Of a stretch of DNA of 52,230 nucleotides, positions 1-47,302 are shown in pieces. The position numbers and the translations under genes are program-made. The first letter of the stretch is position 1. Each line of letters begins with the position of its first letter. This stretch comes from Reclinomonas americana ATCC 50394 (Eukaryota): NCBI GenBank assembly GCA_048213135.1, contig PS015016.1, positions 192,681-244,910 of the forward strand, given 5' to 3'. The notes under the pieces were generated by a model, which saw only the letters and a list, made by a program, of their open reading frames with translations, did not search any database and had not been told where the DNA came from.

Positions 1-78
1 GAGCGAGCACGAGCGATGTAAATAAACAACCAGTGAGTACAACACCTGCCATGCAAACGCAGAGTGGCGCAACGCAAC

Positions 79-930
79 ACTGTGCGTATGAAAAAAAAAT
101 TCAGCCACGACTGTCAGTCAGGTACAACAATTGCACGCAAGGGCTGAACAAACGCAACGCTATGGAGGCACCGAAAAGCGAGCCGCGGAAACACAAACGG
201 GATGTCAGTCTCTCACTGCACAAGAACACCGCACTACTCGACAAGACGCAACACTGTGCGAAAAAACACACGTGAGCACAATGAGACAAATACAAAAGAC
301 GGCAAGCACATCTGACTCACACTACTCGCGCGTGTGAGGCGGAGAGACGGTAAGTTCCCGAACAACGAAAGGAGCGATGCGAAACTGAAAAAATGAACGC
401 AACGCATGTGTGGGCCACCTGAATCGCAACGAGAAACACAGTGAGCACTTTGTGCACAAGCAAGCAAACTCACATAAACAGAGAAGGGGAGTCTCACCGG
501 TAGAGTCTCGTCACTGGCGTGTCCTCCGAACCGGTTGATGGTGAATGGACAGTCCCCTGCATAATGTGCGTGAGCAACACGCGCAGAGACCGCATGATAT
601 TCACTGTCAAAGAGTTCGCAACACTGCCAACAAGTTGTCGTGAGCAGAGTGAGATACACACAGTCGATAAGTGCACGACTTGGAACGCAACAGAATCGTC
701 GTTCGGCGGCAGGCGATTGCGACCCCACACCTGCAGCACACAATTCTCGTGAGGTCAGACCATTCTTTAGAGGAAATAATGTACTCCTGGTTACAACGCA
801 ACAAAGCCTGCAGATGCACGCACTGCATTGTTAGCAACAACGTATCACGCACGAACAGAACACAAATGACGCAACGAAGGAACAGCTGGCGCTCCTCGGC
901 GGTGAAGGACTGCAGCGCACGCCACAAGTA
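79..930 (-). CDS. HERC-type HECT E3 ubiquitin ligase, C-lobe part 1 (partial; on an apparently inverted contig)
   Basis: Minus-strand exons 930-876, 807-803 (5 nt), 730-692, 623 (1 nt), 556-498, 418-404, and 1-nt exons 321, 253, 159, 79. All have AG/GT boundaries and splice to YLWRALQSFTAEERQLFLRFVWGRNRLPPNDDSWDCPFTINRFGGHASDETLPVAHTCF(F), the HECT C-lobe with the catalytic Cys. Confidence 0.9.
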
Positions 931-1542
931 CTGCACGCTCACGCGATTAGCAGGAGCGTATGCAACAGTTCCTCTATCAGCCTGACCTGTCTCCGTGCCG
1001 AAATGATCTGTGCCTCTCTCTCTCACTCTNNNNNNNNNNNNNNNNNNNNNNNNNNNNNNNNNNNNNNNNNNNNNNNNNNNNNNNNNNNNNNNNNNNNNNN
1101 NNNNNNNNNNNNNNNNNNNNNNNNNNNNNNNNNNNNNNNNNNNNNNNNNNNNNNNNNNNNNNNNNNNNNNNNNNNNNNNNNNNNNNNNNNNNNNNNNNNN
1201 NNNNNNNNNNNNNNNNNNNNNNNNNNNNNNNNNNNNNNNNNNNNNNNNNNNNNNNNNNNNNNNNNNNNNNNNNNNNNNNNNNNNNNNNNNNNNNNNNNNN
1301 NNNNNNNNNNNNNNNNNNNNNNNNNNNNNNNNNNNNNNNNNNNNNNNNNNNNNNNNNNNNNNNNNNNNNNNNNNNNNNNNNNNNNNNNNNNNNNNNNNNN
1401 NNNNNNNNNNNNNNNNNNNNNNNNNNNNNNNNNNNNNNNNNNNNNNNNNNNNNNNNNNNNNNNNNNNNNNNNNNNNNNNNNNNNNNNNNNNNNNNNNNNN
1501 NNNNNNNNNNNNNNNNNNNNNNNNNNNNNTTCGCACATGCAG

Positions 1543-2232
1543 TGTTGCGTCTCTCGTAATCTGCTTTCTAACTGCCTCGATTGTGTGTCACTCACTTGGT
1601 CGTTTCTTGCATGTCCTGCAGCTCGGTTCGGCTGTATTTTGCTGTCTTTGTGCATGCTGAATATCTGTTGTGTGATTTGAGTGCTCACCTGTGCCACCTG
1701 CAACTCGCCCGGTTCGATGTGCACAGCTCGGTGAGTGCAGTGTTCTTTTTGAGTCACGTGATGGTGATTCTGATGCGGTTCTTGGTGGGGGAACGTGCAG
1801 ACTTGCCGGAGTACACGTCGCAAGATGTGCTGCGCGAGCGCATCCTGTTTGGTGTGTGTTCTTGATGGGCGACGTTGTTGTATTTCAAATGCATTGCTAA
1901 ATTTGTTGTTTCTCCAGCCATTGTCAACTGCCAGGCCATCGATACCGACTTCAATCCGGAGAGGTGAGGAGTGTTGTGAAGTGTGTTGTGTGTTTAATTG
2001 TGACTTGGCTAACTCTGTTTGTAACACACAGCTCTGCGTGCGTCGCATCGTGTCACGCACATCTTCTGCGGTGCTTGCTTGTTCCTCACATTTTTTTGTT
2101 GTTGAATGTTGCTGTACACAGCTGGTATGTTATCGTCCAAGAGGGTTGGGAAAAGGTGTAAGGTTGGCAATAGTGAGTGTGTGTGACGGTTCTTCTCGTG
2201 TGTGCAGGTTGGATGCCGGTGTCGAGGAGTGA
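1543..2232 (+). CDS. HERC-type HECT E3 ubiquitin ligase, C-lobe part 2 (C-terminus)
   Basis: Exons 1543 (1 nt), 1622-1625, 1727-1730, 1801-1851, 1918-1963, 2032-2037, 2122-2124 and 2208-2232 give (F)SLDLPEYTSQDVLRERILFAIVNCQAIDTDFNPESSAWLDAGVEE*. This matches the HERC1/2-like terminus LxLPxYxS...LxYAIxNCxxIDxD. Confidence 0.9.
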
Positions 2233-2788: not shown

Positions 2789-3404
2789 ATGGCGGAGGAA
2801 GAGCAGTACTTGTTCTCGAAAGAGTACTATGCTAACTTGCTTGCCCGCATCAAGGCGTTTGCTGAGCGTGCGAGTCGAAAAGTCTATCGGGACCACAAGC
2901 GCAGTTCGACTGTGACTGTGTTTCCTGGAGATGACTACGGTGGCGAGTATGATAATGCGGGAGAGGAAGTGGAGGTGATCGAGGACTCGGTTGGTGGCGA
3001 TCGTGATCGCGAGGTCGATGGCGGCTATCTCAGTGACTGGCCATGGGGCGAGTGCGCCAAGGACTCCACAGTTACGCCCTGCTCTCGCATTGTATGTGTG
3101 CCTCTCTCTCTTTGTGTGTGTGTGTGTGTATGTGCACGTGTGTGTTGGTGGTGGTGGTGTGCGTGTGTTGGTGGTGGTGGTGGCGGTGTGTTGCAATTGT
3201 GTAAAGATATTGGTTGCATTTTTCTGTGAACAGAGGCATCGTGCGGGCATGGCTGGTCATGAGCTTTTCAAGGTCGCTGCAGCTGCCAGTGCGGTAGCAA
3301 GTGTGCTTGATCATGAAGCTCCTTCGAATCCGGATCCACTGCCGGCGCTACATCCCGTCGATTTGCCACCAGCGTTGTTGCGTGACTTACTGATGGCACA
3401 TTGA
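2789..3404 (+). CDS. hypothetical protein (two exons)
   Basis: MAEEEQYLFSKEYYANLLARIKAF... open reading frame, a GTATGT donor near 3092, a GT-repeat intron, then a second exon ...RHRAGMAGHELF...LLMAH*. No family recognised. Confidence 0.5.
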
Positions 3405-5593: not shown

Positions 5594-8055
5594 ATGTCAC
5601 AGAAAGTCCAAGAGCGTCATCAGAAGATCCTGCGCGATCTTGTGCAGCTTCCCGACAACCGCCGTTGCTTCTCGTGCTCCACTCGAGTTGCGTCATCTGC
5701 AACAGTTGTCGACGCAGTACGCACACACACACACTCTCTCTCTTGCTCTCTGTACATTCCCTCCCCTGTCAGTGCTCTCTCTCTAGAGACAGAAAGAATG
5801 TGTGTGGACACACCCAATTTGCGTGTGTTGCTCATGTCCACACCATCGTCGCTCGACACGCGCACACACGCAACACACACGCGCGCGCTCAGCCGCTTCT
5901 GTGTGTACGCATGAGCACGCGTGTCTCTGCGCGTGTGCACCACGCGCGCGGTTTTCTCTCGCTCTCTTTCTCTTCACACTGCATCACATTGCGTGGGGTT
6001 GTCAATGCCCGCCACCACTCGCGCGCGCACACACGCCCACACTCTCGCTCCCTTCCACTGATGCGTGTTTCTCCTCTCGCCGCGCACTCGTGTTCTCCTG
6101 CCTGCACACTTGTGTTGTGAGAGTTCTATTTTTCTTGCAAGCTCACATCCACGCCACACACACACGCGTTCACAGGGCAACGTGTACGCGGTGCTGCCGT
6201 TCAACATCTTTGGTTTGTTGTCTACTTGCTGCCTAGAGGTAAACCTCCTCCCCTCGCCACGTCATTGACTCATATCTCCTGCTGTGCAGTCTGCACGCAC
6301 TGTGCCGGCATTCAGTTTCGTCTGTTTCTCGTCCTCGGGAGTCGCACTGTTGGCTTACTGTCTGTGTGTGTTTGTGATAGCCGCAAGTTCACCAACCACC
6401 GCGTCAAGGGCATTGGTATGGCCAATTTTACCCCCGATGAGGTCAAGGCGCTGCAGGAGGGCGGCAACAAGGTCTGCTGGAGCTCGCTGACTTCGCGCGC
6501 TCTCTCAATCTATCACACTCACCACCACCTCTCCTCTCTTTTGTTTCTTTATTCATAGGTCGCTCGCGATGTCTGGCTCGGCCAGCTGAAGGACAGCGAC
6601 ATTCGTCTGCCCGACCCCAAGGACGATCGGTTCGTATTCGGCCGCCCCTTCTCGTTGTTCATGCACTGATCTCTCTGTCTCGTTTGCAGTCTGATCGAGG
6701 CGTTCATTCGGAGCGTCTTTGAGCAGAAGCGCTACTACCGCGAGCCAGGAGAGGGTGGCTCGGGCGGCTTTGACGACGATGTTGCGTCGCACGCATGCAT
6801 CACAGAGTGAGAGGATTCTTGTGTTGCTGATCGTGACGCAGGGTGAGGTCGATTCCATTCCGCAAGCCGACGTCCGCGAAGTCGTGAGGGAGCTGCCAAA
6901 GCTCCATGTTGCGTCTTCCTGCTCTATAACGCGCCCTTGCGTCTTTTATGCTCATGAGAACGAGCAGGTGTCGGATCCGGGCACTCGCCCCCGCTCTGGC
7001 TCGGGCCGCAAGATGCAGCTCGGCGGTGGAGGTGGTGGTGCTGGTAGCTCTGCCACACACGCTCGTCGCGATCACTCGCCCGAGAAGCCGGCGGCCGCGG
7101 AGAAGCCAGCTGCCGCAGCCGGTGGCAAGAGCGGTGGTGTTGCGTCACTCGTGCACAAAGTTGGTTTATCGCAGCAGATGATTGACATGTGCATGTTTGG
7201 CTTGCAGGATGATCCATTTGGATTCTTTGATGGCCCCGACCCGCATGCCAGCGCCGCCAAGGCACCTTCGGCGGCCGTGGCTGGTGAGCATGCGTCATAT
7301 CACGCGCGATACATAATGTCCACTCACGTGTACTTGTTGCAGGTCTTGATGAGTTTGACGCCGCGTGGGACGATGATGGAGTGCGTCGTCGCATGTTTTT
7401 GATTTCATGTTGGCGCTTGCTTTCACTCACTTCGTCTGTTCTGTCCAGGCTGCGGCTGCGGCTTCGGCAGCACCTGCCAAGGACAAGAAGTCGATTGTGT
7501 CGGATCTGTTCAAGTCGGTGAGTCGCTCCCTCTCTCGTTTTACCACTGTACCTCTCCCTTCCTCTGACACATGAAATCAGATGCCGGGTGGTGGCTTTGG
7601 TGGTGGTTTTGGCGGTCAGGCGGCACCCTACGGCGCCAACCCGTACGGCGCGCAAGCCAATCCCTACGGTCAACCGGCTGGCGGCAACCCCTACGGCCAA
7701 CCGGCCGGTGGCAATCCGTACGGACAGCCGGCTGGTGGTAACCCCTACGGGCAGCCGGCTGGCGGCAACCCGTACGGCCAAGCTGCGGGTGGCAACCCAT
7801 TCGGCGGAGCTGCTGGCGGCAACCCGTTCGGTGGTGCTGCCGCAGGCGGTTACAACATGCCGCAGCAGGCCAACCCCTACGGCGGAGCCGCGCAGGGTGG
7901 CAATCCGTTTGGTGGACAGCAGGCGCAGGGCGGCAATCCGTTTGGTGGTGGTGAGTTCCATTTCTGTCCATTTTTTCCTGTCTTTAATGTTCTCGTACTC
8001 ATGTCAGTTGTCGCCAGACATGGGTGGCTTTGGCGGTGGCTACCCGCAGCAGCAG

Positions 8056-11056: not shown

Positions 11057-11450
11057 ATGCTGTCCATCACAGGCCTCTTCAAGCTCATCATCCTCTTCCT
11101 CAACGCCTTTGCCATCCTGTCAGAGACGTTCCTGGCGCAGAGTTACGCTCTCTCCCACACTCTCTCTCTCAGTGTGTCTCTCTCACACGAATCGCACACA
11201 GTCGGTCTGGCCGAGCCCAAAGGCCAAGGCGCACACGATGCCGCCTTTCTGCGCCAGATAGGCGGTGCCTCGCAAGACTCTGTGCGCATTCGCCTCATGA
11301 AGTTCCTGGAGAGCGTGCGCTTCCTCATGCGAAGTTACACTCAGTCTTCCTCTCATGCACACACACGCACACACTGACTGTTAATGTGCACACAGCACCA
11401 CTGATCTTCCTCAACACGCTCACCATGGCCGTGCTGATTGTGTTTGGATA
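11057..11450 (+). CDS. YOS1: Yos1/IER3IP1 ER-Golgi membrane protein
   Basis: Three exons give MLSITGLFKLIILFLNAFAILSETFLAQIG...KFLESVRFLMRTPLIFLNTLTMAVLIVFG*, matching the Yos1 signature. Confidence 0.88.
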
Positions 11451-11503: not shown

Positions 11504-12489
11504 ATGGCGTCTTCGTCATCACCATTAGGCAATGGTGCTCAAGATGAGGAGGAGGAGGCACTGCGTGAGGAGTTTGAGCAGTTGCTGGAGGAGGCGAGCA
11601 GTGAGGATCGTGTGGCGCGACAGCAACGACTGGCGCAGTTGGTGTTCACACGTGGAGTGCCACGCGAGACAGAGGTGTGCGCACATATGTGAGCACGCGC
11701 GCGCGTGTGTGTGTGTGTCTCACACATGTGAACAAAGGAGGAGGTCATGCGCTTGCAGACGCACATGGAGCCTGGATTGCGCGCGCGACTGTGGAAGGCG
11801 TTTCTTGCAGTGCCACCATATGAGGCTGAAGAGTTGAGCAAGAGAGAGAGGCACACACGCACATGCCACGTGCGCGCGTATTCATGCTTTGTCCACACAT
11901 GGTGCAGGTACTTGAGGTATGTGCATTGCGATGATGAGCTGGAGGCGTGGAAGGAGGCGGCGATCATTGAGGACGATGCACCGCGCACGTTGAAGAAGAA
12001 CTTTGAATTCTCCGCGCGTGCTCCTCAAGACATTCTGCGGCGTGTCTTGTACTGCATCCTGCGTGCGATTCGTTGAGTTGTCTCTTGACTCATTCTTTCT
12101 TAAAGCTTCTCTCCTGCGACTGACTGAGTGGGCTCTCTCGCAGCAACGCAAAAGTACATTCAGGGCATGAATGTGACGNNNNNNNNNNNNNNNNNNNNGT
12201 GAGGCATTCATGCAGAGCACCAAGTTGCGCAGACGCCGTGGCATGCATCGATGATTGCTTCCCCCACTCATGCTGCGACAGGTCGGTGATCGCCAAGTCG
12301 CTGGTCGAGGATCGGCATTTTGAGGCACGCCCGCTGCAACGCGAGGCGCTGGCCGCCGCCGAGTGGACCGCCGAACACCACCCTGACCTGTACGACGACT
12401 GCGTGCAGCACTGCCTAGACGTGAACGTGTGCGAGCGGTTATTCAACACCCACGGTCGCTTCCACCGCATGGCACACGAACGTCGATAA
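11504..12489 (+). CDS. TBC-domain GAP, Bub2/Cdc16-like (middle lost in gap)
   Basis: LRARLWKAFL, IEDDAPRT (IxxDxxRT Arg finger) and KYIQGMNV (Gln finger). The post-gap exon ending HERR* is assumed to belong to the same gene. Confidence 0.75.
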
Positions 12490-12529: not shown

Positions 12530-12934
12530 TTACAAGTGGCGCTTGCCGAGGGTCCTCACACGCGCGTCAAACGTGCGCGTAGTGATGGGCTTGGTGGGGC
12601 TGAAGAAGGGACTCATCATGACCTTCAGGAACAACTCGTAGACCTCCTTGAAGAAGGCCTTGACTCCGTCCTACCAGCAACAGCACAGTGAGACAACAAG
12701 GAGAGAGAGAGAGAGACAGGCACACACTGTAGGCGCAACTGGCGGCAGGTTATCGTGCAACAACATGAACTGCGCACACAGCACAAGTGGTGAGCGTGAG
12801 TCGACACACTGAGAGAGAATGAGACTGACCCGAACACCCGACGCCGTGATGAACGCCGACACAATGTAGTCATTGAAGCGGTCGACGCTGCCACTCTTCA
12901 GAAACCTGTGTTGTTGTTGTGTCAACATGCGTGA

Positions 12935-12967
<33 letters not shown>

Positions 12968-13268
12968 CGCAACATGGAGGTTGTCTTCCACTGCTCCTCA
13001 TCGACAAAGTCCAGTGCGGCGTGGATCACAAACTGGTTCAAGTGGCTCGAGTCCTCGCGCTATGCGAGGAAAGTCAGCACACAGAGAGACAGACAGAGAG
13101 AGAGAGAGAGAGCGCAACTCGTGATCCTCCTGTGAACTCGGCCTGTGTGTGTGACACGAGTGAGTGCATGTGTGTGTGTTTGAGTGTGTGTGCGTGGAGA
13201 ACCTCATAGATGGGCGTGTCCTTGTCGCCGACAATCACAAAGCATGAGTACTTCGAGGCCGATGACAT
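12530..13268 (-). CDS. TRAPPC2: TRAPP complex subunit 2 (sedlin/Trs20)
   Basis: Six exons: FVIVGDKDTPIYEAEF...[52 protein letters not shown]...FFKEVYELFLKVMMSPFF...FDARVRTLGKRHL*. Confidence 0.95.
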
Positions 13269-13574: not shown

Positions 13575-13777
13575 ATGAAGGGCTCATCGACATCGTGTCA
13601 GTACTGCCCGAACGCACAGTTGATTGACGAGTTGCGTGCACACACTCACACACACTCTCACTCTCACACACACTCACTGACACTCGCTGTGTGAAAACCA
13701 ATCGCAGTCGATTACATTCAGTCATTGTGTGTGAACGATGTCGTCGAGTTGCGTGCGCGCGCTTTCCAGTGTGACCA

Positions 13778-13821: not shown

Positions 13822-15978
13822 CATGCTGATAGAGTGTGTGTGTGCAGGTTCTGGAGGAGCGACGAACGGACACGGGTGAGGTGACGATTGGACCGGAGGA
13901 AGATCAGCTCTTGTGTGTGGTTCTCGAGGACTTGGTGGAGCACACACCCAACTTGGACGTTGCGTGCGCTCATGCCTTTCTCTCTCTCTCTCTCTCGCTC
14001 TGTGTGCGCTGATTGTCGCTCGCAGTTGCCCAACGATCCGTTCGGCACGCAAGGGTACATTACGGCGTTCAGGCAGGTGCAAGTGGCGCACGACTATGCG
14101 CTGACGGCCACGGCACGGTGTGCATGCATGCGGCTGCTGCTTGTCGTGCGTTTGCTCGTGCTGATGTTTGTGTTTTGCGGTCGTGCGCAGAACAATGGCG
14201 CCGACGCTGGCGGAATTCGAGCGCAGCATGAGCGATGTGTTGTTTGGCGATCAGTCGACCGACAGTTGCGCGTGCTCTCTTCCCTTACTCATCGCTTTTG
14301 CGGCGATCTCACGCGGCGCCAGGTGTACCGGTGATTGCGGCCATTGCGCCGACGACGCTCAAGGGCCTGACGACGTCGTACTTTCTCTGCCACGATCTGT
14401 GCGACATGTTTGGGCTGGAGACGTATGTGGCGGAGCGCATGGTCACCACGCTGAAGACGACGGTGTTGTCGGGCAAGCTGCGTTTTGGGAAGAGTGTGGA
14501 GCCGACAGTGTGCGCCGCGTTGGTGGTGGCGCTGGAGGGCGTGGAGCCATCGCCGGAGGTGCCGACCTTGGCGCAGATTGCCGACATGTATGAGCAGCCG
14601 ATTCACGATGTGGTGCGCTACGTGGAACTGATCAAGTTGCGTGACGATGCGCGCGTGGAGTACGTTGCGCGTCTCTGCTGCTCACCACTGCGTGCACAGG
14701 CAATCGACAAGAGCATTGGCGGCTGCGGCGGCAATGGCTGCTGCCTCCTCGGCGGCCGCTGGCTCGTCGACCACCACCACCGCCTCGGCTGGCGCTCCGT
14801 CAGGGTCGTCGGCGTTGTCCGTGCACATGTCATCGTCGGTCATGTCGTCGTCGTCGGCGGTGAGCGCTGCTGCTGCTGCGGCCGCCGCCGCTACAGCAAG
14901 TTCCATGTCGTCTCCATCGTCAGGGTCGGCCAGCAATGCGGCGTCACGGACCCTGGTACAGGAGGTGCTGGAGACACTCGATCGGTACATGGATCAGTTC
15001 GACTTGTCGCCCACCACGCGAATGATTGCAAAACACGTGGGCGAACACTTTGCCATGGTGTCCAAGCGCATCTCCATTTCTATTTCGGCGGCCTCCATGT
15101 GAGTGTTTTGATGAGATTGTCGCTTGGGAGAGAGAAATGTGCTGACTCGTGCCCGTCCAGCTACGTGACCACGCTGCTGGAGTGTGAATACCGAACACAA
15201 GCGGAGCTGTCGCAGGCCATGAAGGTGTCGAAGGTGACGCTGCGCAAGGTGGCGCGCGAGATCTCCGACCGGCTAGCTTCGTTGTTGCCGAGAGATTACA
15301 AGCCGAAACAGTCGGTGGAGGAGGTGATTTCGTGGTTCCGACGCGAGACCTCGGGTGGTGACAAGAAGGCCGATGTGAGTGTTATTAGATTCTGTGCTTT
15401 TGCCGATTTTGCGTTGTTGACAATACGTGTTTCGGCAGCGTCCGTGGGTCAAACCGAGGAAGACAAGCAACGGGACGGCGAGTGGCGGAGCCAGTGCCAC
15501 CTCGTCGACTGCCACCAGCACTACGACCACGACGACGACAACCACCACCGCTGCCACGGCCATTGCCGCCGCAGGAGACGCCATGTCTGCAGCAGCAAAG
15601 AACGCACGTGGCTCAAACGGCACACCAACCATGACCACGGCCGCCGCAGGCTCACAATCACCACCAGCCGCGGTACGTGCACATGGAATCCCAAGAGAGA
15701 CACGCATTCATTCATGTTGTTGACTGGTAACGCAGACGGCGGCGTTCCGACCGCGGACCCAGCAAGTGGAGAACTGGACCTTGCTGCTGGCAAACCAAGC
15801 TGCAGCCGCTGCAGCCGCCGCCGCAGCAGCAGCAGCATCGTCATCACCATCGTCCTCTTCCAGCCTCATTGCCGGCATCAGACCACCACAATCAGCAGGT
15901 GATGCAGCACTACCACCACCACCTCCTCCTCCGCCTCCGCCGCCACCACCACCACCACCACCACCGGGGGCGGTATAA
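13575..15978 (+). CDS. TFIIB-related factor of the pBrp (plant-type BRP1) subfamily
   Basis: Zn ribbon CQYC...CERCRRVLEER, then LCVVLEDL, NDPFGTQGYITAF, LAEFERS, KSVEPTVCAAL, HVGE, ISISAASIY and TQAEL...VTLRKV...LLPRDYKP. These parallel the motifs I recall from Arabidopsis pBrp. Confidence 0.85.
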
Positions 15979-16332: not shown

Positions 16333-16423
16333 CGATAATGCGCGTAACAATCCACAGTCCACTGCAGTGAACGGATCATCGTGTTTCCTTATCGTTGCGT
16401 CTGTGTGAGCGAGTCTCCATTAA

Positions 16424-27947: not shown

Positions 27948-29061
27948 ATGGCGATTGGGTGAGTCGCCAGACAGACATAACAGACAGGTGGCAGAGGGCA
28001 GACGCAGGAAGCGCACTGGCGTGTGCGTGTGGCGGTGGTGCGGGTGTGAGGGAGAGAGAAGTGTGTGGGCATGAACACATGCGCATGTCGGTGCCATGCA
28101 TGGCGCACAGCCCCTCTCCTCCCTTCTCGCCCGCCTCCCTCCTCCTGTGCACACGTGTATATGCGTATGGGTGGTGGAGAGGGAGAGTGCTCCAGTGCAA
28201 CACGTGCACTTTCTGCGAGTGTGAATGTGTGATTGATTGATGGAGACGATGGATGTGTGTGCGCTTGAGACTGCTGCCTCTCTCCCTCCGTCCCTCTCTC
28301 TCCCTCTCTCTTTCTTGTGCTCTTGTTGACAGAGTCACACGCACGACTTTTCCGCACACTGTGCCATGATCAGATCTCTCGATCACACCCGTCATCTTAC
28401 TTTCTCTCTCCAATCCCCATAACCCAGCATGCTCACCACTTGTGCGCCCTCCTTCCTCCTCCCATTAACAGAAAGAACCCGATGAAGAGCAAGTACACCA
28501 AGAAGGGGTCGAAGAAGAAAGTGTTGCGTGCCATGGCATGTCTGCTGTGCTCACTCGCTGCGCACTCACCCTTTTCTTCCCCTCCTCTCTTTCCTTCTTG
28601 GTTAATCGCCGCCAACAGCATTGACCCCTACTCACGCAAGGTGCGTTGTTTCTGTCGTTTGCTTGAGAATCTTAATGGAAGAGACTCGGGGTGTCACTCA
28701 CACTCGGTCTGTGCAGGAGTGGTACGACATCAAGGCCCCGGCTGTGTTCCGCGAGCGTGAGGCGTGCAAGACCATTGTGAACCGCACTGCCGGCACCAGT
28801 TGCGTCTGCGTGTACAGGGGGAAAAAGAGAAGCCGAATTGGGGCTAATCGCGCTTGCTTGCTTGTCCACAGAGATCGCCTCTGAGGCGCTGAAGGGCCGC
28901 GTGTTCGAGGTCAACCTCGGCGATTTGCACAAGAACCCCAACCTCGGCAACCGCAAGATCAAGCTGCGCGTGGAGGACGTCCAGGGCCGCGCCTGCCTCA
29001 CCAACTTCTACGGCATGGTGTTCACCACTGATCGCCTGCGCTCGCTCGTCCGCAAGTTTCG
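27948..29061 (+). CDS. RPS3A: 40S ribosomal protein S3a/eS1 (N-terminal part; remainder lost at gap)
   Basis: [36 protein letters not shown]...[29 protein letters not shown]...[36 protein letters not shown]. Confidence 0.97.
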
Positions 29062-35078: not shown

Positions 35079-36191
35079 ACTGAATTCCGACCAACTTCGA
35101 CTTCTTCTTTTTCTCTCTCTTTCACTCACTTCCACTCAACCTCTCTTTCTACATTATCTCTCCTTACTCTCCCCAGGTCTTTCCTTCCTTTCTTCCTTTC
35201 TTTCCCCTTGTCCTCTCGCCCACCTTCCTCTTTCACCCTTCCATCCCTTTCTCTAATTCTCCCTTCCTCCCCCAAACGCAACAACCACAGCCGGCTCATA
35301 TGCTCCCACACCATAGCCGTCGACCATGGCAATGATATGCACTGGCGCGTTGGTGGTCGGGATCTGCACACCTGCGCCGATGCAAGTCTCTCGTCAGCAG
35401 GAAAAAAACATGCAATAAAACAGGAACAGCAACGTACCAAATCGCGCAGCTGCAACAACGCAAACAGAAAAACATAGGAGTGAGAAACAAACACACCCCA
35501 TGAGACGACACGAACACAGACCGCCAATGGCATGGATCATATTCTCGAACACATCGCCTGCACCGCCTTTCACGAACTGCAAGCGCGCGCGCGCGAGACA
35601 ACCGCAATGAGCACCTCATATCATCTCAACACACACAAGCATGCATACCTTGATAGAGAACTTGGCAGTGTCTCCATACAATCCGCGGTTGTCCACCTGT
35701 CTCCACACTGAGCAATGATCGCGCATCAAAAAACACACTTGCAAGAATAGGTGCCCGCACCACTCGCACACTGCCAGTGATCTTGTTGCTGCCAAACAGC
35801 GGCTGCTTCAGTGTCTCATTGGTGATGCCCACCAGCGGCAACTCGACAGCAGTGAAGCCGGGGTCGTCTTGCGGAATGTACACCACTCGGAAGCTGAACA
35901 CACATACGCAATCAGAGACAACACACACACACTCTCTCACACACAGAACAGCAGTTCGCGCGCAACGTGGTGACATAGACGGCGCCTCTCTTGCTGAGGT
36001 ACTTGGCACGCAGTCGCGCCTCTCCGTCCTCCTCCAGCTCAAACTCCACGTGTGGTGACATGTACAGGAAGCTGACAGAGGGCGCGCATGAGAGGCAGGA
36101 AAAGCGCATAAGGAGAGCTCACAACACACACACACCGTTCGCCTTCATAGTACACAGGCTCGCCACCTTGTGTGGGCGAGTTGAGCGCCAT
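34077..36191 (-). CDS. WBP2-like GRAM/PH-domain protein
   Basis: MALNSPTQGGEPVYYEGERF...GAVYVTTFRVVY...LKQPLFGSNKITG...FVKGGAG, with the tail motif AYVDPNDPSRIYL. Confidence 0.8.
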
Positions 36192-37526: not shown

Positions 37527-39083
37527 TCAGTACTTCTCCATGACAAAGCACGCGCCGTTCTCCGACACAAAGCACAAATACTCTTGGCGACCCGATAGTG
37601 CCGGTGGGGGCACACTGAGCGTCACAATCGGTGCCTGTGCGTCCTTGTAGATGCTATTGACCACGCTGTCGTTCTCCTCCTCGACATCGTCGCGCCGTGC
37701 CGATCGCCTCGAGCCGCCACCACTCATGTCGTCGTCTCCGTCGTCCTCCACGGTGCTGGCCAGCGAGCCGCCCTCCGTCGGACCTCTTGTCACCCACACC
37801 ACCTGCCCGTCTTGCGTGCACGCCACCACCTGTGGTGGTTGTGGCGAGGCCAGCAGTTGCACCTGCCACACTGGTGGACGGCGAAAGGGAGAGAGAAGAT
37901 ATGAGACCAGCAACCACATCACTTCTTTCTCTCAGTTGACGGTCTCACCAGAGGCCGGGAAGCTGGCATCGACCACCACCACTGGACTGCGTGGCTCACG
38001 AATGTCGTACACCCGCACACGACCCTCCGTGCTGCCGACGGCCACGTGGTGCTTGGTGGCGTTGCTGCTGAGACTGGTGATGCGATCGCCCGGCAAAATG
38101 GAGCTGTGTGTCATGCACCCAATGAGCACCCATGCACGCCACGACTCGGGAGTGCCAGAGACGCGCGCAACTGTCGACACTCGAGCGTCAGCGTCTTTGC
38201 GTCGGCGTCGACACGCCAGTACGCCAGCGTGCCCGTGGACGACACCGACCACACATCCCTGCTGCTGACAAAGCGCACATCGGTGATGCTGCCGCAGTCC
38301 GCATCCGCTGCACACGCCGGCAAGTCAACAAACAACCCCTCGCCAGCTGCAAGCACAGCCACCACCTGTACTCACCCACAACAGCGACCTCCACCGGCTG
38401 CGCGCCCTGGCAGTCGACCAGCCGCAGCGCACCATCCTCACCACCAACCACCGCCAACAGCGATCCCGACAACACATCCAAGCACGTGAGCGGCAGCTCG
38501 TCGCACACTCGCAGCTTGGAGACCCGTTCTTGTCGCGCTGCATCAACGAGCAGAGGTGACGACACGCGGCAAAGCAGGGAGAGGGAAGAGAGAGAGAGGA
38601 GACAAACCATCAGCAAACGGGCGATAGACAACCACCAAGCCTGCACTGGTGGTGGCCACCACAGTCTCCCGTGCATGTGCATTCTCCGCCACCTGCACGA
38701 CAAGCAACAAGTCACGCCAGTGTATGTCTTGCCGCCTCCTCTGCTCACTCACTCACCGCGAGTGCCGTGACTTCGCCCTCCACCGACACACTATCAATGC
38801 GCTCCAGAGTGGCCACAGGCGCCGCCGCCGACGATCGCGCCACACACCACAACGCAAGTTGCTCTCTCTGCACACACACACACTGGTGAGACACAGACAG
38901 AGAGACAGTGCGTGTGTGCGTGAGAGAGAGACTGCCGACCTCATCTGCGGCGCCAGTGACCACACACAACGAGTGCGGATCGGCAGTGACAAAGGTGGCC
39001 ACTCGCACCACACTCTGTCCCAAGAACGTCGTCAAGAGGCGACGCAGGCCGAGACCAGGAGTCACAACTTTGCGTCTTTGCAT
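37527..39083 (-). CDS. WD40 protein, Nup43-like
   Basis: VTGAADE/QLALW, VEGEVTAL, LAVVGGEDGALRL, HVAVGSTEGRVRVYDIR and PVWQV..VACTQDG occur in an order resembling Nup43. Confidence 0.55.
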
Positions 39084-39175: not shown

Positions 39176-40729
39176 ATGGGCGACGCAGCACTGGAGACAG
39201 CGCTGCGGTCGAGTCTGCGGCAGGTGGTGGAGGTCATACAGTCTATGGCATGTCGCACTCTCTCTCTCTCTCTCCACTCGCACACACACGCACACACGCG
39301 CGCGCTCACTCGCTCGCTCCTCGCTCACAGGAAGAGGATCTGGCACGCATCCACGCGCACCTGAGTCGACTGGTGACGCGCCTCACGCCACTGGAGAACA
39401 AGTTTCGCGCGCGCGTTCTCTCTTGCTCACGTGCTCACTCTCTCCCANNNNNNNNNNNNNNNNNNNNACGACCGCGGAGTCATTCGGGAGGAGCGTCGAG
39501 TGGGCTGGCCACGGCGGCCTCGGTCGGTTTGTGGGGAGCGCAGTCGCAACAGCAGCAGCAACGCCGTACGGTGCAAGCGGGATTGGCGGCGGCGCAGTCG
39601 GTGACGCTCGTCTCTTCGTCGTCGTGGTCGTCGTCACCGTCACCGTCGAGCCCGGCGCCAGCAGCAGCAGCAGCAGCTGCTCCTCCTCCGCTTTCGTCTG
39701 CGTCGTCTGCACCCACGACGGCGTCGTTGTATCGGCTGTTGATGGGCCGCGTGTCGTTGGATGCACAGCTCGACCGCGAGTTCAGCCAGTACCGCTCGGA
39801 GTTGGCCGTGCCGCGCTTCTGCTGCGCGCTCTGCTCCGAGTTGGTGGATCGCGGTGCGCGTGTACCTCATTCTTCCGCGCCCGTTTCTGTTCTCATTGCG
39901 CTGCGCAGTAATGTACAACAACAAGCTGGGTTGGGCGGCGCAACCCGATGAGGTTGCACTGCGTACCTCCCTCAAGGCACTGGAGCAGTACTGCAACAGC
40001 GCCGGCCCCGGCCAACTCGTGCTCTGGGCACCCTTCATGCGGGCGCAACGCGACAGCGGACTCATCTCGCTCTTCCAGCACTACCTCGTTGCGTTCGTCC
40101 TCTTCCCCTCCCTCCCCATTCCGTCGCCATTTGTTTCCACTCAGCACTGTGTGCAGGCCAATCTGCCGAAACCGCTCCTCGGCCAGTTCAATGAGAGCGA
40201 GTGGCGTGCGGCGACCAGCGGTGATCGTCTGCGCGAGTTCCTCGAGGACAGCCTGCCTGCCTCCTCATTAGCGCTGTTGTGTGTCATTGCACACTTGGCA
40301 GCCATGGTGGAGGCTGTGAATCGGAGGAGAAGGCGTGAGGAGGTGGCAGAGGGCTCGGGAGTGGCGGCCGTGGCCAATTGGTGCAGAAATCGATCTGTGT
40401 GACTTTTTTGTTGTCGTCTGTCTCCTCACGCGTCGTGCTCGTGCAGCCTTGGCACGCATTTGTTCCACACCATGAAGGATTCGTCGGCGAGTTCAGCGTC
40501 ACGCGCAGTGCGCTTCACGCGAGTTCTACTCGAACGGCTGCCAGCCGTGTTGCCGACTGCCTACGACATTGTGGTGATGCGCCGCATGCCCTCGCATCAC
40601 ATTTCGGTGTTGCAGTCGTCAACACTTCCGTCTGCGTCCGCATCATCTGTCGCCGACGCACCAGCGTCGCGCATTCCATCTGCCGAATCCTTCATACAGG
40701 GTCGCGAGCCACCAGCACCACTGCTTTAA
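39176..40729 (+). CDS. hypothetical protein with degenerate RhoGAP-like helical domain
   Basis: VPRFCCALCSEL and LFQHYLANLPKPLL resemble RhoGAP blocks. No clear G-x-F-R Arg finger. Confidence 0.45.
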
Positions 40730-40770
40730 TCCGCCATGTCTCCACTAATGTATGCTCATCTTCCCGACAT

Positions 40771-43436
40771 TCAAAAGTCGATCACTGTCAAAGATAAGCG
40801 TGGATTTGAGTACTCGGTTGCAGAATGCGTGCGGAATGGGAGCTCACCAGCAATCGGCCACATGTACTTGTTGGTGTCGTTGACCACAAAGTACTTCTTC
40901 TTGTCGACCCACTCGATTGTGTCACCTGTGCACGGCAGTACCGATTGAGCACCAACACACCACAGTGCCATGGTTATGCATACGCACTCTCCAGCAAGCA
41001 CTCGAACACGATCATGCGGTGCTCCTTGTCGGTGTATCCGATGCTAACCGAAGCGTTCAGCGCAAAGTAATCGCTGCGGCAACGATTTACATTGTGAGTG
41101 CGGGGGAGTGTGCGGCTGGCATGCAGACAAACGGTAGTAATGCGCACCCCTCGCCGTACGCCTTGCGCCTGCGCTTCTCAGAGTTGAAGCCTCCACTCAA
41201 GATAAGCGGCACAACCTGGCCTTTGGTTCCGTGGAATGCCAGCTGCTGGATAATCGGTCCTGCACGAATGCAACTCCAGCGTGTCAGGTCTCGTCGATTC
41301 TGCCACAATCTCCCTCTCTCTCACACACACACAGCGAGCGACTCACGTCCACCCACGGCGGCGCGCATCTCCGCCACGACCTCGTCGTGACGCTGGCGCG
41401 TCGAGGTGCTCCACACGACCATGGTGATTGCACGAATGTTCCGCGGCTTGCCGTTGATCCAGTCGGGATCCGCCAACCACCGGTTACGAATGCCCATCTC
41501 GACTTCAGGCAGGCACACGTCAGGTCGCTCTGCCGCGCGTACTCCCTGCGCCTCGAGTTCCGCTGCAATCGCGTCCAGGTCTGCCCTCCCACACACAGCG
41601 TGTCAGTATCGCACCTGCACTGCTGAACGAAAAGTCGACTCACCAAAGCGCACCACTTTCCGCACTTCTTCCGCGTAGTCCAGCGTGGCCTGTCGCAACC
41701 CCGGCGCGTGTGAGGACAATGAGCGAGGCAACCGGCAGCACGATGGTAAACTCACCTCCATTACGCCCCCGTCCACTGCGGTGACTGAAACACACTTACC
41801 GCAAATGTATTCGGGCAGACCTTCCGTGCTGAGCTTTTCACGGTAGAGTGCAATTCCTGCCTCTCGCGATTGCTGTTTACACGACAGTGTGAGCTTTGTT
41901 TTTGCACGACCCCACTGCAGACAACGCGAGTGCACGCACCGCATTGAGACGCACACGACGCACAGCTCGCACACCACCCTCCAGCTCGAGCACTGTACAG
42001 AAGGGAGAAAAGTTAGCGTCGACCGACGCCCCAAACCCCGACTGCCCACGCAACAGTAAGCGTAGTTTCCGTCGTGCAGCTCGCCGCAGTTCTTGCGGAA
42101 CGTAATGGACGGATACGTCCGGAGCCTGCAGTCGCATCCAGTCAGCGAATGGATCACAAGAAGAACCAACAGCAACGCACGATTGGAACTCGGCATCCGA
42201 CTGCAGCGTCGCGGGACTGACTCGGTAGTGGGGTGGACCGAAGAGAGTCGGTGGACCAGCATCGTCGAACTCGTCGTGTTCCACGGCTCGACTGTGGCTG
42301 CTCGATCTGCGATCGTCGGAGCTGAACCGGTTGCCGACCGAAGAGGCGGCCGAGCTGCCGGCAACCGACAGTCGACCGGCGGCCGATGGCGCCTGCTACC
42401 ACACCGAGTGAGTGGTCCCGATGGAAACAACACTGCCTCTCTCCCTATCTCTCACACCTCGGCTGCAACGTCGAATAGACTGGTGGCCACCGAGGACCCA
42501 GCGTAGCGACCGGTGGAGGCCGGGTGAGGTGGCGCGACAACGAATCCCTGGTGCATGTTTGCATGTGTGGCCACCAGCAGCGGCGGCTGTGGCGGCGGTG
42601 GCACCATTCCATGGTGCACGTAATGACCTGTTGCGACACTGTACGTGCGCATGTGTGCATGTGTCTCGAGCGGAGGCAGCGACGGTTCCGAACGGTGCGA
42701 ATGGAGCACGGGCTGATAAGCAGGAGGGGGGTGGTGGTGGTGGTGGTGCGCAGCCGGCGGTGAAGGCTGTGCGGCGCGTGGCTTGGGCGGCGGCCGTGAC
42801 TCGACCATTGCTTGCACCGTGGCCCGCACATCTCGCGGTTCGTGCTCCCGATCACGCGCGTCGTACGCGCAAATCGCATCATTGAGAGCCGTGTACAGCT
42901 GCGACGCCGAGGCCTCGCGCGGAGGCGACCGGCAGCCTGTGTATTTGAGCACGCCTTTCAGCGCCCGCAACAGAGAGAGAGAGAGAGCAGGGCAGACACA
43001 CGCAACGAAGAGGCTCCCAGGCGGCACGAGTGCACCGTGTCTGTGACCACCACTTGAAGAACATGGTGTAGGCCAGCACCAGCTTGCCCTGGTCCTCTTG
43101 GCTAAGCATCGCGCGCTCTTTGCAGATGCCACGCAGCAGCTCAACCGTGACCTTTTCCTCGTGCCACAGTCGGACGTCGTCCGCCGATGGACGCGAGTGG
43201 TCACGCATGTATGCTTCCACTGCGTGTGATGAGAGGGACGAGGGTGTGTGTTGTGAGCGCGTACACATATGTGTGTGAGAGAGAGACAGGGTGCGGAGAG
43301 AGAGAGAGAGGATGAGAGCGCAACATGTGCTCTGCATTTGGTCGATGACATCGCTGCAGAGGTCGGGAATCCCCATGTTCATGAATTCCCGCGTGTTGTT
43401 CACCAGCCGGTGGAGCCGCACCGAGTCGTCGGCCAT
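40771..43436 (-). CDS. protein with C-terminal PARP-like ADP-ribosyltransferase domain
   Basis: LAFHGTKGQVVPLILSGGF...AYGE(G)DYFALNASVSIGY..MIVFECLL...KYFVV..YMWP provides the HGT, YFA and S..Y signature motifs. Confidence 0.75.
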
Positions 43437-43631
43437 CTCTCTCTCTCTCTCTTTCTCTTTCTTTCGCAAGTCGTTGTCCCTCTTGTCCGCCGTGTTTCGT
43501 GTTGTCTGATTTCAAGAAATCCTTCGTCCATGATGGTCGTGGCGTGTGCACCGCATGCATGCGGGATCAAGCTCTGCAGCGCTAGCGAACAACCATCTCA
43601 TCCTTCACTTGGTCTTTTCCCGCTTCATGAT

Positions 43632-45290
43632 CTAAATGGTCTCCGTGCTGCACTCGGCCACCACTGGCATGGACTGCGATGAAGCACGTGAGGTGAGCAT
43701 GCGGTGACGTTCGTCTCTTTGTCCTCGTCGCGCTGTGCAACGCAACAACAAGTGTCCGTGTCTCCGGTCGCAGCATGCGCAGCCAGGTAAAGACAATGTC
43801 GTCGGGCGCAAAAACTTGAGCCATCCACTGCGCAGTCGCGATCGGGGAGAAGGAGAAGCGGCAGTCAGAGACACACTGACACCAATGTGGCGAGGGAGCT
43901 CGGGTCGGCAACGAAACCTCTTCGTGGCTGATCTTGCCGTCTTTGTTCGTATCAAGCTGCGGAAAAAGTGAAGCATGTGAGAGAGCGCAGCGGTTTGCGT
44001 GCGGGTGGCACAGAGACTGCAGTCACGCACTCGATGGAACAGGCGGTCGACGACCTCTCTGATGGACTCCTCCAGGGCACGTTCTCGCATCTGCATATCA
44101 ATGTTTGTCGATCATCGACATTGGAAGCGGTGATGCATGTCAGAGAAGTAAACCTTCACCACTTCGCGCGGCGACAAGGTTCCGAGCAGTAGGTCGTCCA
44201 TGGAGTCGTGGACATCGGCCCAGCCGACAGCCTGCAACGTGCAACCGGTCAGCCTCATCGACATCATAGACAACTAACTCTCCGATATTCATGCCTGTTT
44301 TCCCATCAAGAGCGACGCCGCTGCGACCTGTGCGCGACGCGCGTTGAGAGTCTGTCGGATACGTAGCACACTTCTGTGTCTCTCTACTCTACCTCGCCAG
44401 CGACATATGCTCGGATGATGTTGTAGGCCTCTTTCTGCACGTGCGAAAGTGATGAGTTGTCGCGAGCATTCTCGTTTCTTCATGGCTGTCGTACCTGCGT
44501 GATCACGCCATCGTGATTGACATCAAAGATCCTGTTGATATAGAGCCATGTCAGTCGCCATCACACACGTGGCATCGTGTTGCTGCTGCTGCGACGATGT
44601 GCACACCGAAAGGTAATCTCCAGTTTCTCCTCCATTGTTCCATGACCGACCGTCACCGCCTGGCACGCGAGGAATTCATCCAGATCCAGCGCCCCGCTGC
44701 GAATCGCATCAGGTTATCCCAATGCACTGCAGAGATCCCTCCCATCGTGGTGGACGCACCTGTGATCAATGTCGATGGCGTCAAACAGCCGCTCAAAAAT
44801 GCACTGCAATGAATATGGTCAGCGTGTCGTCGCCGTCGATGTTCGTCTGCACACACATGAATCATATGCACATACCACTGTGTCATGCGTGCAGTACGGC
44901 AGCAACTTTAGTGCCTCCAGGTACTGAGCCTTGGCAATCAGCAATTCACCCGTCGCTGGAGAGGGCGTTGCAAGTTCCGCAAAAGCGTGCTTCTGTTGAA
45001 ATGATGATGACGATGATGGTGTTGAGGATCAGCTCTTCCCGCGATCACAACAACACGCACACAACGCACCTGCTCCTCAAGCTCTCGGGCTTCGGAAGAG
45101 AACACGAGGCAGCGCAAATTCGGTCAGCACATCGATCGCGATCCACGCGGACGCACACACACACACNNNNNNNNNNNNNNNNNNNNCTCCTCTCTCTTGC
45201 ACAGAAGGCGCATTATTGTTCCTCACCGAAGAATTTCGACTGCACAGTTTCGCGATCAATGTGGTGCCCTTTGCCGGCGTGGTTGCCCAT
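43632..45290 (-). CDS. N-myristoylated NCS/calcineurin-B-like EF-hand protein
   Basis: MGNHAGK start, then ERLFDAIDIDHSGALDLDEF, GTMEEKLEITFRIFDVNHDGVITQKE and LDTNKDGKISHEEW. Confidence 0.85.
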
Positions 45291-45506
45291 CGATTATGTC
45301 TCCCTCTGTAGTGACACTCTCTCTCGCTCCCTTTCTCTGTCGCTTGTGCTTCCGACCGCGTATTACGAATTCTCTCGCACAATCAAAGAAATGGACAAGT
45401 TCGATTTGTCCCAAATTTCGGTTCGATATCACGGTTTTTTCCAGTTGCCCGCCTATTTCTTCGTTTACGATCGGTGGGCGCGCGCAGAGACTGCCAAGGT
45501 TCACAG

Positions 45507-47302
45507 ATGGGCAACACACTTCCACTCGCCGCCGACAAGGGCGCACAGGATCAGCACGGTGAAGTCACATTCTCTCGACTCGACGATCGCATTGCAGTTG
45601 TTCCTGAGGTGTGTTTCGGGGTGTTGCTCGCTCTCTCCCTCTCTTTTCTCACCATCGCACGCATGTCTGTGGCGCAGTTCGACGAGGGTCTCTTGGAGGT
45701 GGATGTGGAGGGCAGCAATGGTGTTCCGCTTCAAGAGCTGAACCGCCAGCGCCACGGCCATCGGCAACGATCGCAGCTGTCGGCACTGCCGACACCATCG
45801 GCGCGGCCGCTTCTGCTCCACAGTGAATCGGTGGATTCACCGGCGGGGGGAGAGGCGGCAGCCGAGGTGGCGTACGCCGGGGAGGGCGAAGACGGGCCAG
45901 AGACGGAGTCGTTGCGTGAGCAACATCTGCAGCTGGCGGGCGCCGAACCCGCGGCCATGAGTCCGGGATTCCTGCGTGTCGCTGGTCGTCTGCCTCCGAG
46001 CTCCATGCCAGCGCCGGCGCCCAAGCGAACGCGACCAGTGATGACCGAGTTGATCGATGTCATGGACACGAGTCACGATGAGGAGATTGCTCGCCGCCTG
46101 CAGATGCAGATGGAGGCCGAGGGCGACAGTGCGGTCGATGGTGCGCGTGACTTTTGTCGGTTCCACCTTTTGTTGTTGTCGTCGTGAGCCTCACATGCAT
46201 CGTCTGCACATGTACAGCTGCACTGGCGGAAGCCACACGACGCCACGAGCAAGAGCTCGCCGACGAAGAGATGGCACGCCAACTGTTTGCCATGGAGCAG
46301 CAGCGAGTTGCGTTTACTCTCTATCTCTCTATCTCCCTCTCTTCCCCCGTCCTCGTTGTGGCTGACATCTGTTATTTTGCTTTTGCTTCTGCAGCTGGCT
46401 CGTCGTCACGTACCACCCTCCGGTATCGTCCCTCCCTCGCCCTCGATGGCCAGCGGTCCCGTGCGCTCCGTGCTGCGTCGAAGCACTGCGCAGAGTGCGG
46501 CCGGTCGCGAGCGACGTGTCGCAGTGGCATTCGACGTCAGTGTCGACAGCCCGTCATCCACCACCTTCTCGTCGCCCGCCAGCGCCGCCGCCGACGCCGA
46601 AGCCTTCGGCAACGAACTGGATCTCACGCCGCTGTCGCCCTCCACTCCCAACTATGGTCCTTCTCGTCGGCGGATGCAGCAGCAGTTGTCGCGCACGCAG
46701 TACCACCAGTCAACCGGCTCTGTGATGGAGCAGATGTATGGCGGTGCGCCAGTGGCGAGCCCCAGCCAGTACGCCGCACAGCCGGAGGAGCTGCGAGTCA
46801 GCATCGCTGCATTGGACATTTTCCCCACATTCGAGTACGAGTCGCCGGCGAACGGGCCGCGCGACGAGTGCATGTGCTCCATTTGCCAGTGCGATTTTGA
46901 GGCGGGCGAAAAGTTGCGCGTGTTGCCCTGCCTGCATCGCTTCCACGTCGGATGTGTGGACGACTGGATGCGTCGCGGCCACTTCACGTGCCCCATGTGC
47001 AAGTACGAGTTGTTGCAGCATGTGCCCAAGTTGCGTCTCCCCCTCTCCCCCCTCTCCCCCCTCTCACACACTGCAGTTCGCTCACACGTTGCCCCCCCAA
47101 CAGGAGCATGCAACAACGTGCGGGATCTGGCCCTGTTCCCGCTCAGCAGCAGTCGTCCCATGGCCATCGCAGCCACCGCAGTGGCAGCTCGCGGTCGGGA
47201 TCGAGCCGACGCCACTCGCATCGCCATGAACGGGAGCACAGACACGGAAGTGATAGAGCTACTGCCGCTGCCGTTGACATGCATCGCTTGCGGCAGCCAT
47301 AG
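45507..47302 (+). CDS. RING-H2 E3 ligase with UIM/MIU-like motifs
   Basis: MGNT start, DEEIARRLQ and DEEMARQL motifs, and CSICQCDFEAGEKLRVLPCLHRFHVGCVDDWMRRGHFTCPMC. Confidence 0.88.

Follow-up and report, generated by a model that had tools for sequence, protein, structure and literature searches.

For a small number of human 5′ splice sites, of the type GUUAAGU, pairing with U1 small nuclear RNA (snRNA) in a shifted register has been proven (Roca & Krainer 2009, described in Tan et al. 2016, PMC4856993). The validated noncanonical registers of human together account for 1.5% of 5′ splice sites (PMC4856993). The human shifted sites have GU-U followed by the consensus one base inward, are cut at the GU, and place G+1 opposite U1 where G-1 normally stands. 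Sites of the bulge +2/+3 register (Roca et al. 2012; Tan et al. 2016, PMC4856993) likewise start with GUU and have a consensus displaced by one base. In Entamoeba, the donor GUUUGU goes with a U1 5′ end reading ACAAAC; donor and U1 have also co-evolved in Mastigamoeba, and Physarum has mixed U1 variants (10.1101/2022.06.08.495308). We analysed 52,230 bases of DNA from Reclinomonas americana ATCC 50394 (contig PS015016.1 of assembly GCA_048213135.1, positions 192,681 to 244,910 of the forward strand; this whole stretch is called the window) and found a class of donors (5′ splice sites) reading GTTGCG(T/C), rarely GTTGAG or GTTACG. The window contains nine runs of N, has about 57% G+C and is dense with genes that have many short introns. 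A paper on the nuclear genome of another jakobid describes an intron-poor species and, in the passages seen, shows no donor logo.

We propose that these donors are a genuine second form of 5′ splice site of the major spliceosome, serving about one third of the introns here. Compared with the handful of human shifted sites, the class makes up 34% of introns, is predicted to pair poorly with standard U1, and follows only exons that do not end in G. The bulge +2/+3 register keeps a G at -1 useful, whereas G stands at -1 in 0/42 of our donors. Like the class, Entamoeba-type donors have U at +3 and a long, rigid consensus to which standard U1 is ill fitted. However, the Entamoeba, Mastigamoeba and Physarum genomes are described as using one consensus for nearly all introns, Entamoeba being intron-few, whereas here two forms coexist in intron-rich DNA and are chosen by the last base of the exon. 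Mamiellales such as Ostreococcus reportedly have strict GTGCG(T/C) donors, an observation said to be that of Irimia and Roy in 2008. They share the GCG-T core and are, like the organism studied here, G+C-rich protists, but neither a shifted form nor a dependence on -1 is named in the passages seen.

A preliminary description of the window, made from its letters alone, had listed 30 donors of the class (19 on the plus and 11 on the minus strand, a minus-strand coordinate being that of the G at +1). All 30 coordinates were exact. They comprise 26 GTTGCG, two GTTGAG (11833 and 12072), one GTTACG (11142) and one GTTACA (11334), and G precedes none of them (0/30), as had been stated. On both strands of the window GTTGCG occurs 75 times (-1 base: T34 C18 A17 G6). 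GTTGCGT occurs 37 times, versus 11.37±3.41 times in 100 dinucleotide-preserving shuffles, none of which reached 37. Within 29 gene spans (37,326 nucleotides (nt)), the direction of which was set by coding potential and homology, 31 copies lie in sense and one in antisense (binomial p=1.5e-8). Control hexamers in the same spans were without strand bias (sense/antisense, 22/27 for GTGAGT and 27/24 for GTGCGT). As the 31:1 skew uses gene direction alone, it identifies GTTGCGT as a sense-strand signal.

The same motif emerged as a donor when genes were modelled. We used our own small Viterbi gene finder, the inputs of which were GT..AG, an acceptor matrix, intron composition and coding potential, and which was blind to position -1 (a first gene finder without splice models fused genes together and was dropped). 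We kept 26 of its genes, discarded 17 low-scoring or antisense 'shadow' models, and replaced 12 introns. With GT..AG, the acceptor matrix and coding potential, the commonest donor heptamer was GTTGCGT. A run without any donor scoring still gave 13 GTT[GA][CA]G donors, not one of them preceded by G, and recovered 8 of the 30 listed sites. An unsupervised mixture of three donor components, fitted on +3 to +9 with exon bases excluded, separated GT+GCGTG (56%) from GT+TGCGTCT (32%) and a residue (12%); gene finder and mixture model together recovered 17/30 listed donors. The GTTGCG donor class thus exists in the window.

For the statistics we tabulated 124 introns, 94 from the gene finder and 30 set by hand. 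Two stretches in which no gene was called despite long open frames, 30650-33030 and 43440-45500 (for example, the frame at 30737-31879 on the minus strand), are omitted from the intron statistics. Donors were sorted into a shifted core (S-core, GTT[GA][CA]G) and a normal core (N-core, GT[GA][CAT]G), and, more broadly, by G at +5, G at +6 or neither. The S-core comprises 42 of the 124 introns (34%; 37 GTTGCG, 3 GTTGAG and 2 GTTACG), so that, within the window, it is a mainstream class, as it had been called.

The class is strictly coupled to the last base of the exon, a conclusion supported by several counts. The base at -1 of the S-core is A18 T16 C8 G0, whereas N-core donors follow G in 35 of 49 cases (Fisher p=6.6e-14). 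Among the rows from the gene finder alone the figures are 0/22 and 31/45, respectively (p=2e-8). The composition of codon positions would lead one to expect 13.3 of 41 S-core donors after G, where none was seen (P about 8e-8). In phase-0 shifted introns A or T occupies -1 in 14 of 17 cases, though third codon positions have only 31% A+T. Exons ending in G had been said to use mostly +5G donors, and other exons both classes. The former number 53 in our table and are followed by a +5G donor in 46 cases, a +6G donor in 2 and neither in 5; the 71 others take +6G in 46 cases, +5G in 16 and neither in 9. None of the 53 donors after G begins GTTG, and the donors that read G/GTT (the slash marks the splice junction) all reach a G at +5 (GTTTG, GTTCG), none being GTTGCG.

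The letters of the two cores can be brought into line by moving one base. At +7 of the shifted donors we found T31 C10 A1 G0 (T or C in 41/42), resembling +6 of normal donors (T33 C9 A6 G1; T or C in 42/49), and the composition at -1 of shifted donors is similar to that at -2 of normal ones (A12 T10 C9 G4). The preliminary description had seen the class as the usual GTGCG, GTGAG or GTACG with an extra T. The displacement of the anchor letters by one base is borne out; the derivation is too simple for a class of 37 GTTGCG, 3 GTTGAG and 2 GTTACG. G stands at -2 of the S-core in 20/42 cases, a weak signal against background on which we do not build.

Two kinds of site lie at the edge of the class. 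At 11675 and 16631 on the plus strand the GCG core is found two bases inward after G (GAG/GTGTGCGC and CAG/GTTTGCGTG; both counted as +5G), a sign that the distance from cut to GCG core may vary. Copies of GTTGCGT at 16394 (plus), 43746 (minus) and 16240 (minus) sit in intergenic sequence or a short way ahead of start codons and may be donors of introns in 5′ untranslated regions.

The gene finder imposes GT..AG at its junctions, so the position of the cut was examined where conserved proteins fix it, in the genes for RPS3A and sedlin (TRAPPC2):

28523..28528, plus strand: GTTGCG in RPS3A, splitting codon GT/C (Val); gapless alignment and boundary test
28799..28804, plus strand: GTTGCG in RPS3A, splitting codon A/AG (Lys); exact by human eS1 spacing, and boundary test
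12734..12739, minus strand: GTTGCG, sedlin intron 5; exact by fly residue spacing
12968..12973, minus strand: GTTGCG, sedlin intron 3; loop in the model 2 residues longer than in fly
13113..13118, minus strand: GTTGCG, sedlin intron 2; spacing within 1 residue, variable loop

Aligned with human eS1, exon 3 of RPS3A covers residues 29-55 and exon 4 covers 57-117, so that a single split Lys codon is left between them and the junction at 28799 is exact. When all boundaries within ±6 nt were compared, without GT..AG being imposed, GT..AG was the unique best solution at 28799 and the sole canonical choice among tied top scores at 28523. A cut one base downstream (TT..AG) was excluded, as it breaks the RPS3A frame. 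Compared with fly sedlin, exon 4 stops at residue 81 and the last exon picks up at residue 92; the 10-residue exon 5 fits the interval exactly, which fixes the donor at 12739. The donors at 12973 and 13118 agree with solved structures within 2 and 1 residues, respectively, in loops. The claimed anchoring by RPS3A and TRAPPC2 is therefore firm for 28799, 28523 and 12739 and approximate for the other two. Conserved proteins show that the cut in these models falls before G+1, at the only GU.

These junctions bear on whether the class might be created by the gene models, manual or automatic, from look-alike sites or from introns cleaved elsewhere. Such an artefact is highly improbable. The spliced RPS3A model (114 residues) aligns without a gap to three relatives (P0001, P0002 and P0003) across both GTTGCG junctions, the sedlin exons fit, copies of the motif are almost all in sense, and the class was recovered without donor information. 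On the other side, the tiny exons described below depend on the gene models, and 19 of 41 shifted-class introns have a length divisible by three, so that a few of them may be false. (These lengths come from a test of retained versus spliced open frames, which guessed phases and was unreliable; only its counts of length modulo three were used.)

The closest named relative of the RPS3A model is that of the jakobid Seculamonas ecuadoriensis (82% over 114 residues), and two transcript-sized records reach 84-85%. Scanning metagenomes with exon 4 yielded 17 loci, with no close relative among them. The intron at Lys56, the one with donor 28799, is in phase 1 (ACC A/GT..AG/AG ATC); in four loci of other eukaryotes (L013, L015, L016 and L017) an intron with an ordinary donor lies 2 nt further on, in phase 0 (ACC AAG/GT..). 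This offset could reflect intron sliding or independent gain. The RPS3A model goes no further than exon 4. Beyond it, at 29061-29873, come roughly 800 nt rich in CT and a gap, and the remaining 140 or so codons were not found in the window, probably owing to an assembly break.

In all but the donor, shifted introns look like their neighbours. Their median length is 70 nt versus 67 for normal introns, and both classes share the CAG acceptor. A branch-like YTNAY is present in 32/39 shifted and 37/45 normal introns, CTCAC and CTGAC being the two commonest forms in both, at a median of 20 nt from the 3′ end in both. The shared length, branch motif and acceptor indicate that these are ordinary GT-AG introns. 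U12-type introns are a second class with a long, rigid 5′ motif that is independent of the exon, and the shifted class is likewise a second class with a rigid 5′ motif. It differs from them in the motif itself and in having the 3′ features of the normal class, on which ground we excluded a U12 type, no search for the U12 motifs themselves being made. Introner-like mobile introns were excluded as well. All-against-all local alignment of 108 introns gave top scores of no more than 25, all of them in (CT)n runs, so the shifted introns are not copies of a mobile intron.

A related possibility is that the rule is historical, a burst of introns bearing their own donor heptamer having entered sites without a terminal G. 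The class is unevenly spread among genes (it accounts for 11 of the 16 introns within the first 4 kb and for none of the 7 within the last 4 kb), introns of the HECT-like gene at 1-1029 cluster with modelled exons of only 1, 1, 1, 1 and 5 nt between them, and the RPS3A intron at Lys56 stands 2 nt from the phase-0 intron of other eukaryotes. Against such a legacy, the introns resemble each other only in the (CT)n runs, with a best local score of 25, no target-site duplications were seen by eye, and the A/T bias at -1 of phase-0 introns looks like selection that is still going on. We consider this origin of the rule improbable.

Our favoured explanation, to which we give an even chance, is a donor form in a shifted register, measured by a U1-like ruler. 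The signal would be read one base out of register, with G+1, U+3, G+6 and U+7 filling the slots of G-1, U+2, G+5 and U+6. Because the anchor letters keep the same relative positions, one molecular ruler would fit both donor forms; we infer that the 5′ end of U1 snRNA most probably serves as this ruler, with U6 coming next. An exon ending in G would pair from the exon side and need only a G at +5, whereas after any other exon the first base of the intron would supply the pairing G. In the shifted helix U+2 would always be mismatched and the remainder would have to be near perfect, which would explain the rigid GCG-T.

A number of results weigh against this explanation. Duplexes predicted with the standard U1 5′ end have a mean energy of -1.4 kcal/mol for shifted donors, versus -6.6 for normal donors and -2.8 for 1500 random GT sites. 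G+1 lies opposite U1 position 9 in the best duplexes of only 8 of the 42 donors; the earlier claim that G+1 takes the place of G-1 agrees with the positions of the letters. Standard U1 would also favour GUUGAGU (-4.1 kcal/mol) and GUUAAGU (-4.0) over GUUGCGU (-1.8), yet the class has 37 GCG, 3 GAG and 2 ACG, when normal donors have A19 C17 T13 at the place matching shifted +5. The shifted register does not explain this requirement for C at +5. Nor does it explain the total absence of G at -1, which the shift makes unnecessary and not harmful. The material sets limits too: the sample is small, 52 kb in all, with junctions modelled from genomic sequence; 30 of the 124 tabled introns were set by hand, and nine of these (HECT-like gene, 1-1029) copy the preliminary model and are not independent; and there are the 19 of 41 lengths divisible by three.

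The weak predicted pairing with standard U1, together with the near-exclusive GCG, suggests an altered U1 or an extra factor. This leads to a different explanation, which we put forward tentatively: a dedicated reader would match GUUGCGU, be it a protein factor or a U1-type snRNA that is either altered or a second one. The class would be a separate code, independent of the exon and read in a register of its own, while the remaining spliceosome is shared. The class is richer in information than normal donors, +3 to +7 being nearly invariant, its standard pairing is predicted to be worse than that of random sites, and a hypothetical, fully complementary 5′ end would give -9.8 kcal/mol for the class versus -4.9 for random sites. 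There is precedent for U1 5′ ends that changed with the donor consensus, in Entamoeba and Mastigamoeba, and for standard and modified U1 side by side, in Physarum (10.1101/2022.06.08.495308). However, Thecamonas and Mamiellales are described as keeping a standard U1 despite donors with C at +4 (10.1101/2022.06.08.495308), so that a new U1 does not follow from a bias towards GCG by itself. A dedicated reader would also leave both the exclusion of G at -1 and the normal spacing of the anchor letters unexplained. An Rfam scan of the window at gathering thresholds gave 0 matches, with no U1 or U6 gene. In this explanation two donor codes might exist side by side, the normal one relying on a terminal G of the exon and the second, [not G]/GUUGCGU, being independent of the exon and read by a changed or additional U1-type snRNA, a possibility of the same tentative standing.

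Standard U1, and later U6, could instead pair in the normal register, with one U bulged and GCGU pairing as +3 to +6. The bulge +2/+3 register has 68 predicted and 54 curated sites among human donors (PMC4856993), and, under any reading, U6 has to make room for one more base between the cut and G+6. But a bulge would leave U1 position 9 free, so that no site should be better than G/GUUGCGU; none of the 42 cases uses it, and GTTG never follows G at the 53 donors after G. The bulged base, moreover, need not be U, yet T occupies +3 in 47 of 48 shifted donors, and energies calculated with bulges allowed are still worse than those of random sites. Since G at -1 is absent just where a bulged U would welcome it, the shifted register fits better, and we regard the bulge as unlikely.

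The remaining donors of the class are given below by gene ('added' marks sites that the preliminary description had not listed). Two HECT-like C-terminal pieces, at 1-1029 (minus) and 1537-2232 (plus), diverge across a gap of 500 N:

73..78, minus strand: GTTGCG, HECT-like gene, after candidate 1-nt exon T79; hand model, next exon outside the window
153..158, minus strand: GTTGCG, HECT-like gene, after candidate 1-nt exon C159; hand model, model-dependent
247..252, minus strand: GTTGCG, HECT-like gene, after candidate 1-nt exon T253; also gene finder
398..403, minus strand: GTTGCG, HECT-like gene, after exon ending ..CAC ACA TGC (LPVAHTC); hand model
617..622, minus strand: GTTGCG after candidate 1-nt exon T623, which completes a TGG codon; extra base needed for the HECT-like frame
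686..691, minus strand: GTTGCG, HECT-like gene, after exon 730-692; hand model
797..802, minus strand: GTTGCG, HECT-like gene, after 5-nt exon GCTTT (807-803), reading FLRFVWGRNRLP; also gene finder
870..875, minus strand: GTTGCG, HECT-like gene, after exon 930-876; hand model
1544..1549, plus strand: GTTGCG, second HECT-like C-terminus, after candidate 1-nt exon T1543; gene finder

The motif in the minus-strand gene at 1-1029 is one that we take to be HECT; a Pfam search with a 21-residue piece of it gave no match. Both pieces need tiny exons to keep their frame (807-803, 623, 253, 159 and 79 on the minus strand; 1543 and the 4-nt exon 1727-1730 on the plus strand), and the string CAG-T-GTTGCG recurs four times in them. 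In the gene models, each of the five candidate 1-nt exons (T623, T253, C159, T79 and T1543) is followed by GTTGCG. Single cases of 1-nt exons are known in Arabidopsis and Fusarium.

In the genes for ArfGAP, Yos1 and a TBC/RabGAP protein, and near them, we found:

3071..3076, plus strand: GTTACG, added; gene finder only
3377..3382, plus strand: GTTGCG, weak candidate with a 419-nt intron; gene finder only
5687..5692, plus strand: GTTGCG, ArfGAP intron 1 (5687-6175); hand model, Pfam ArfGap
6781..6786, plus strand: GTTGCG, ArfGAP gene; gene finder, read-through of the intron hits a stop codon
6908..6913, plus strand: GTTGCG, ArfGAP gene; gene finder, intron stop-free and a multiple of 3 in length
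7139..7144, plus strand: GTTGCG, ArfGAP gene, acceptor uncertain; gene finder
11142..11147, plus strand: GTTACG, Yos1 gene; gene finder, Pfam Yos1 on exons 1 and 2 with a variable loop between
11334..11339, plus strand: GTTACA, Yos1 gene, no G at +5 or +6; gene finder
11833..11838, plus strand: GTTGAG, TBC/RabGAP gene; hand model, Pfam RabGAP-TBC matches exon 3
12072..12077, plus strand: GTTGAG, TBC/RabGAP gene; hand model, frame runs on into YIQGMN

Pfam matches of single exons to ArfGap, Yos1 and RabGAP-TBC are weak and in the correct order. On the ArfGap profile, exon 1 of the ArfGAP gene falls at 2-21 and exon 4 at 49-75, and the model has 21 residues in between for 23 profile positions. 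The intron at 6908 has a length that is a multiple of three and contains no stop, so its support lies in its intron-like form.

The other donors lie in a variety of genes further along the window:

13631..13636, plus strand: GTTGCG, TFIIB/BRF-like gene; hand model, CxxC-15-CxxC zinc ribbon kept
13748..13753, plus strand: GTTGCG, TFIIB/BRF-like gene; hand model
13959..13964, plus strand: GTTGCG, TFIIB/BRF-like gene; gene finder
14265..14270, plus strand: GTTGCG, TFIIB/BRF-like gene; gene finder
14636..14641, plus strand: GTTGCG, TFIIB/BRF-like gene; gene finder
16464..16469, plus strand: GTTGCG, WD-repeat (Nsa1/WDR74-like) gene, intron 1; by eye only
16818..16823, plus strand: GTTGCG, WD-repeat (Nsa1/WDR74-like) gene, added; gene finder
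22725..22730, minus strand: GTTGCG, WD-repeat gene, added; gene finder
25165..25170, minus strand: GTTGCG, EF-hand gene, added; gene finder
25777..25782, minus strand: GTTGCG, EF-hand gene, after a 15-nt exon, added; gene finder, junction completes the loop DVNGDGKLEATE
26293..26298, minus strand: GTTGAG, EF-hand gene, added; gene finder
35961..35966, minus strand: GTTGCG, added; gene finder
38166..38171, minus strand: GTTGCG, WD-repeat gene, added; gene finder
40088..40093, plus strand: GTTGCG, 57-nt in-frame intron; gene finder
42049..42054, minus strand: GTTGCG, added; gene finder
43001..43006, minus strand: GTTGCG, added; gene finder
43319..43324, minus strand: GTTGCG, added; gene finder
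46307..46312, plus strand: GTTGCG, RING-finger gene; gene finder
47030..47035, plus strand: GTTGCG, RING-finger gene, added; gene finder

The CxxC-15-CxxC pattern is presumably the zinc ribbon of TFIIB. Protein searches with a BRF-like and a WD-repeat exon gave no homologues, which leaves six further donors unanchored. Support for 40088 is weaker because its 57-nt intron is in frame. In the EF-hand gene, a 15-nt exon encoding VYDVN (25783-25797, minus) sits between a GTTGCA-type and a GTTGCG-type intron; joined to the next exon it gives a textbook calcium loop of 12 residues, the pattern at the 25777..25782 junction being one that we take to be that of EF-hands. At 37257-37460 (plus), three tandem units of about 99 nt (GATGAT/GTGCTACG...GTGAG/CCG) in an acidic tract were partly called as introns and may be a coding repeat. 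A stop-to-stop frame at 48434-49654 (plus) matches the C-terminus of the Pfam Microvirus lysis protein (E=4.6e-9, 20 residues), most likely a low-complexity artefact.

A literature search with the motif and splice terms, which did not cover supplements, returned no description of a GTTGCG donor class, and as far as could be found the non-G rule for such donors has not been described for any genome. What is new here is that the proposed shifted reading would serve a main class of 5′ splice sites, one bound to the base with which the exon ends. The roles of U1 pairing, U6 pairing and the GU itself in the choice of the 5′ splice site are still argued from few, rare human sites; here shifted sites seem to number dozens in 50 kb and to depend, yes or no, on a single exon base. 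If there are indeed two codes, the second would free introns from the need for a suitable exon end, and this freedom would explain both the 57% of exons that do not end in G and the introns that lie one base apart, at the 1-nt exons. If the rule holds genome-wide, the organism would provide a large natural sample for the rules of register and, probably, an intron-rich case of snRNA and splice site evolving together. Standard gene finders that have learned from +5G donors would then miss about one third of its introns and all of its tiny exons.

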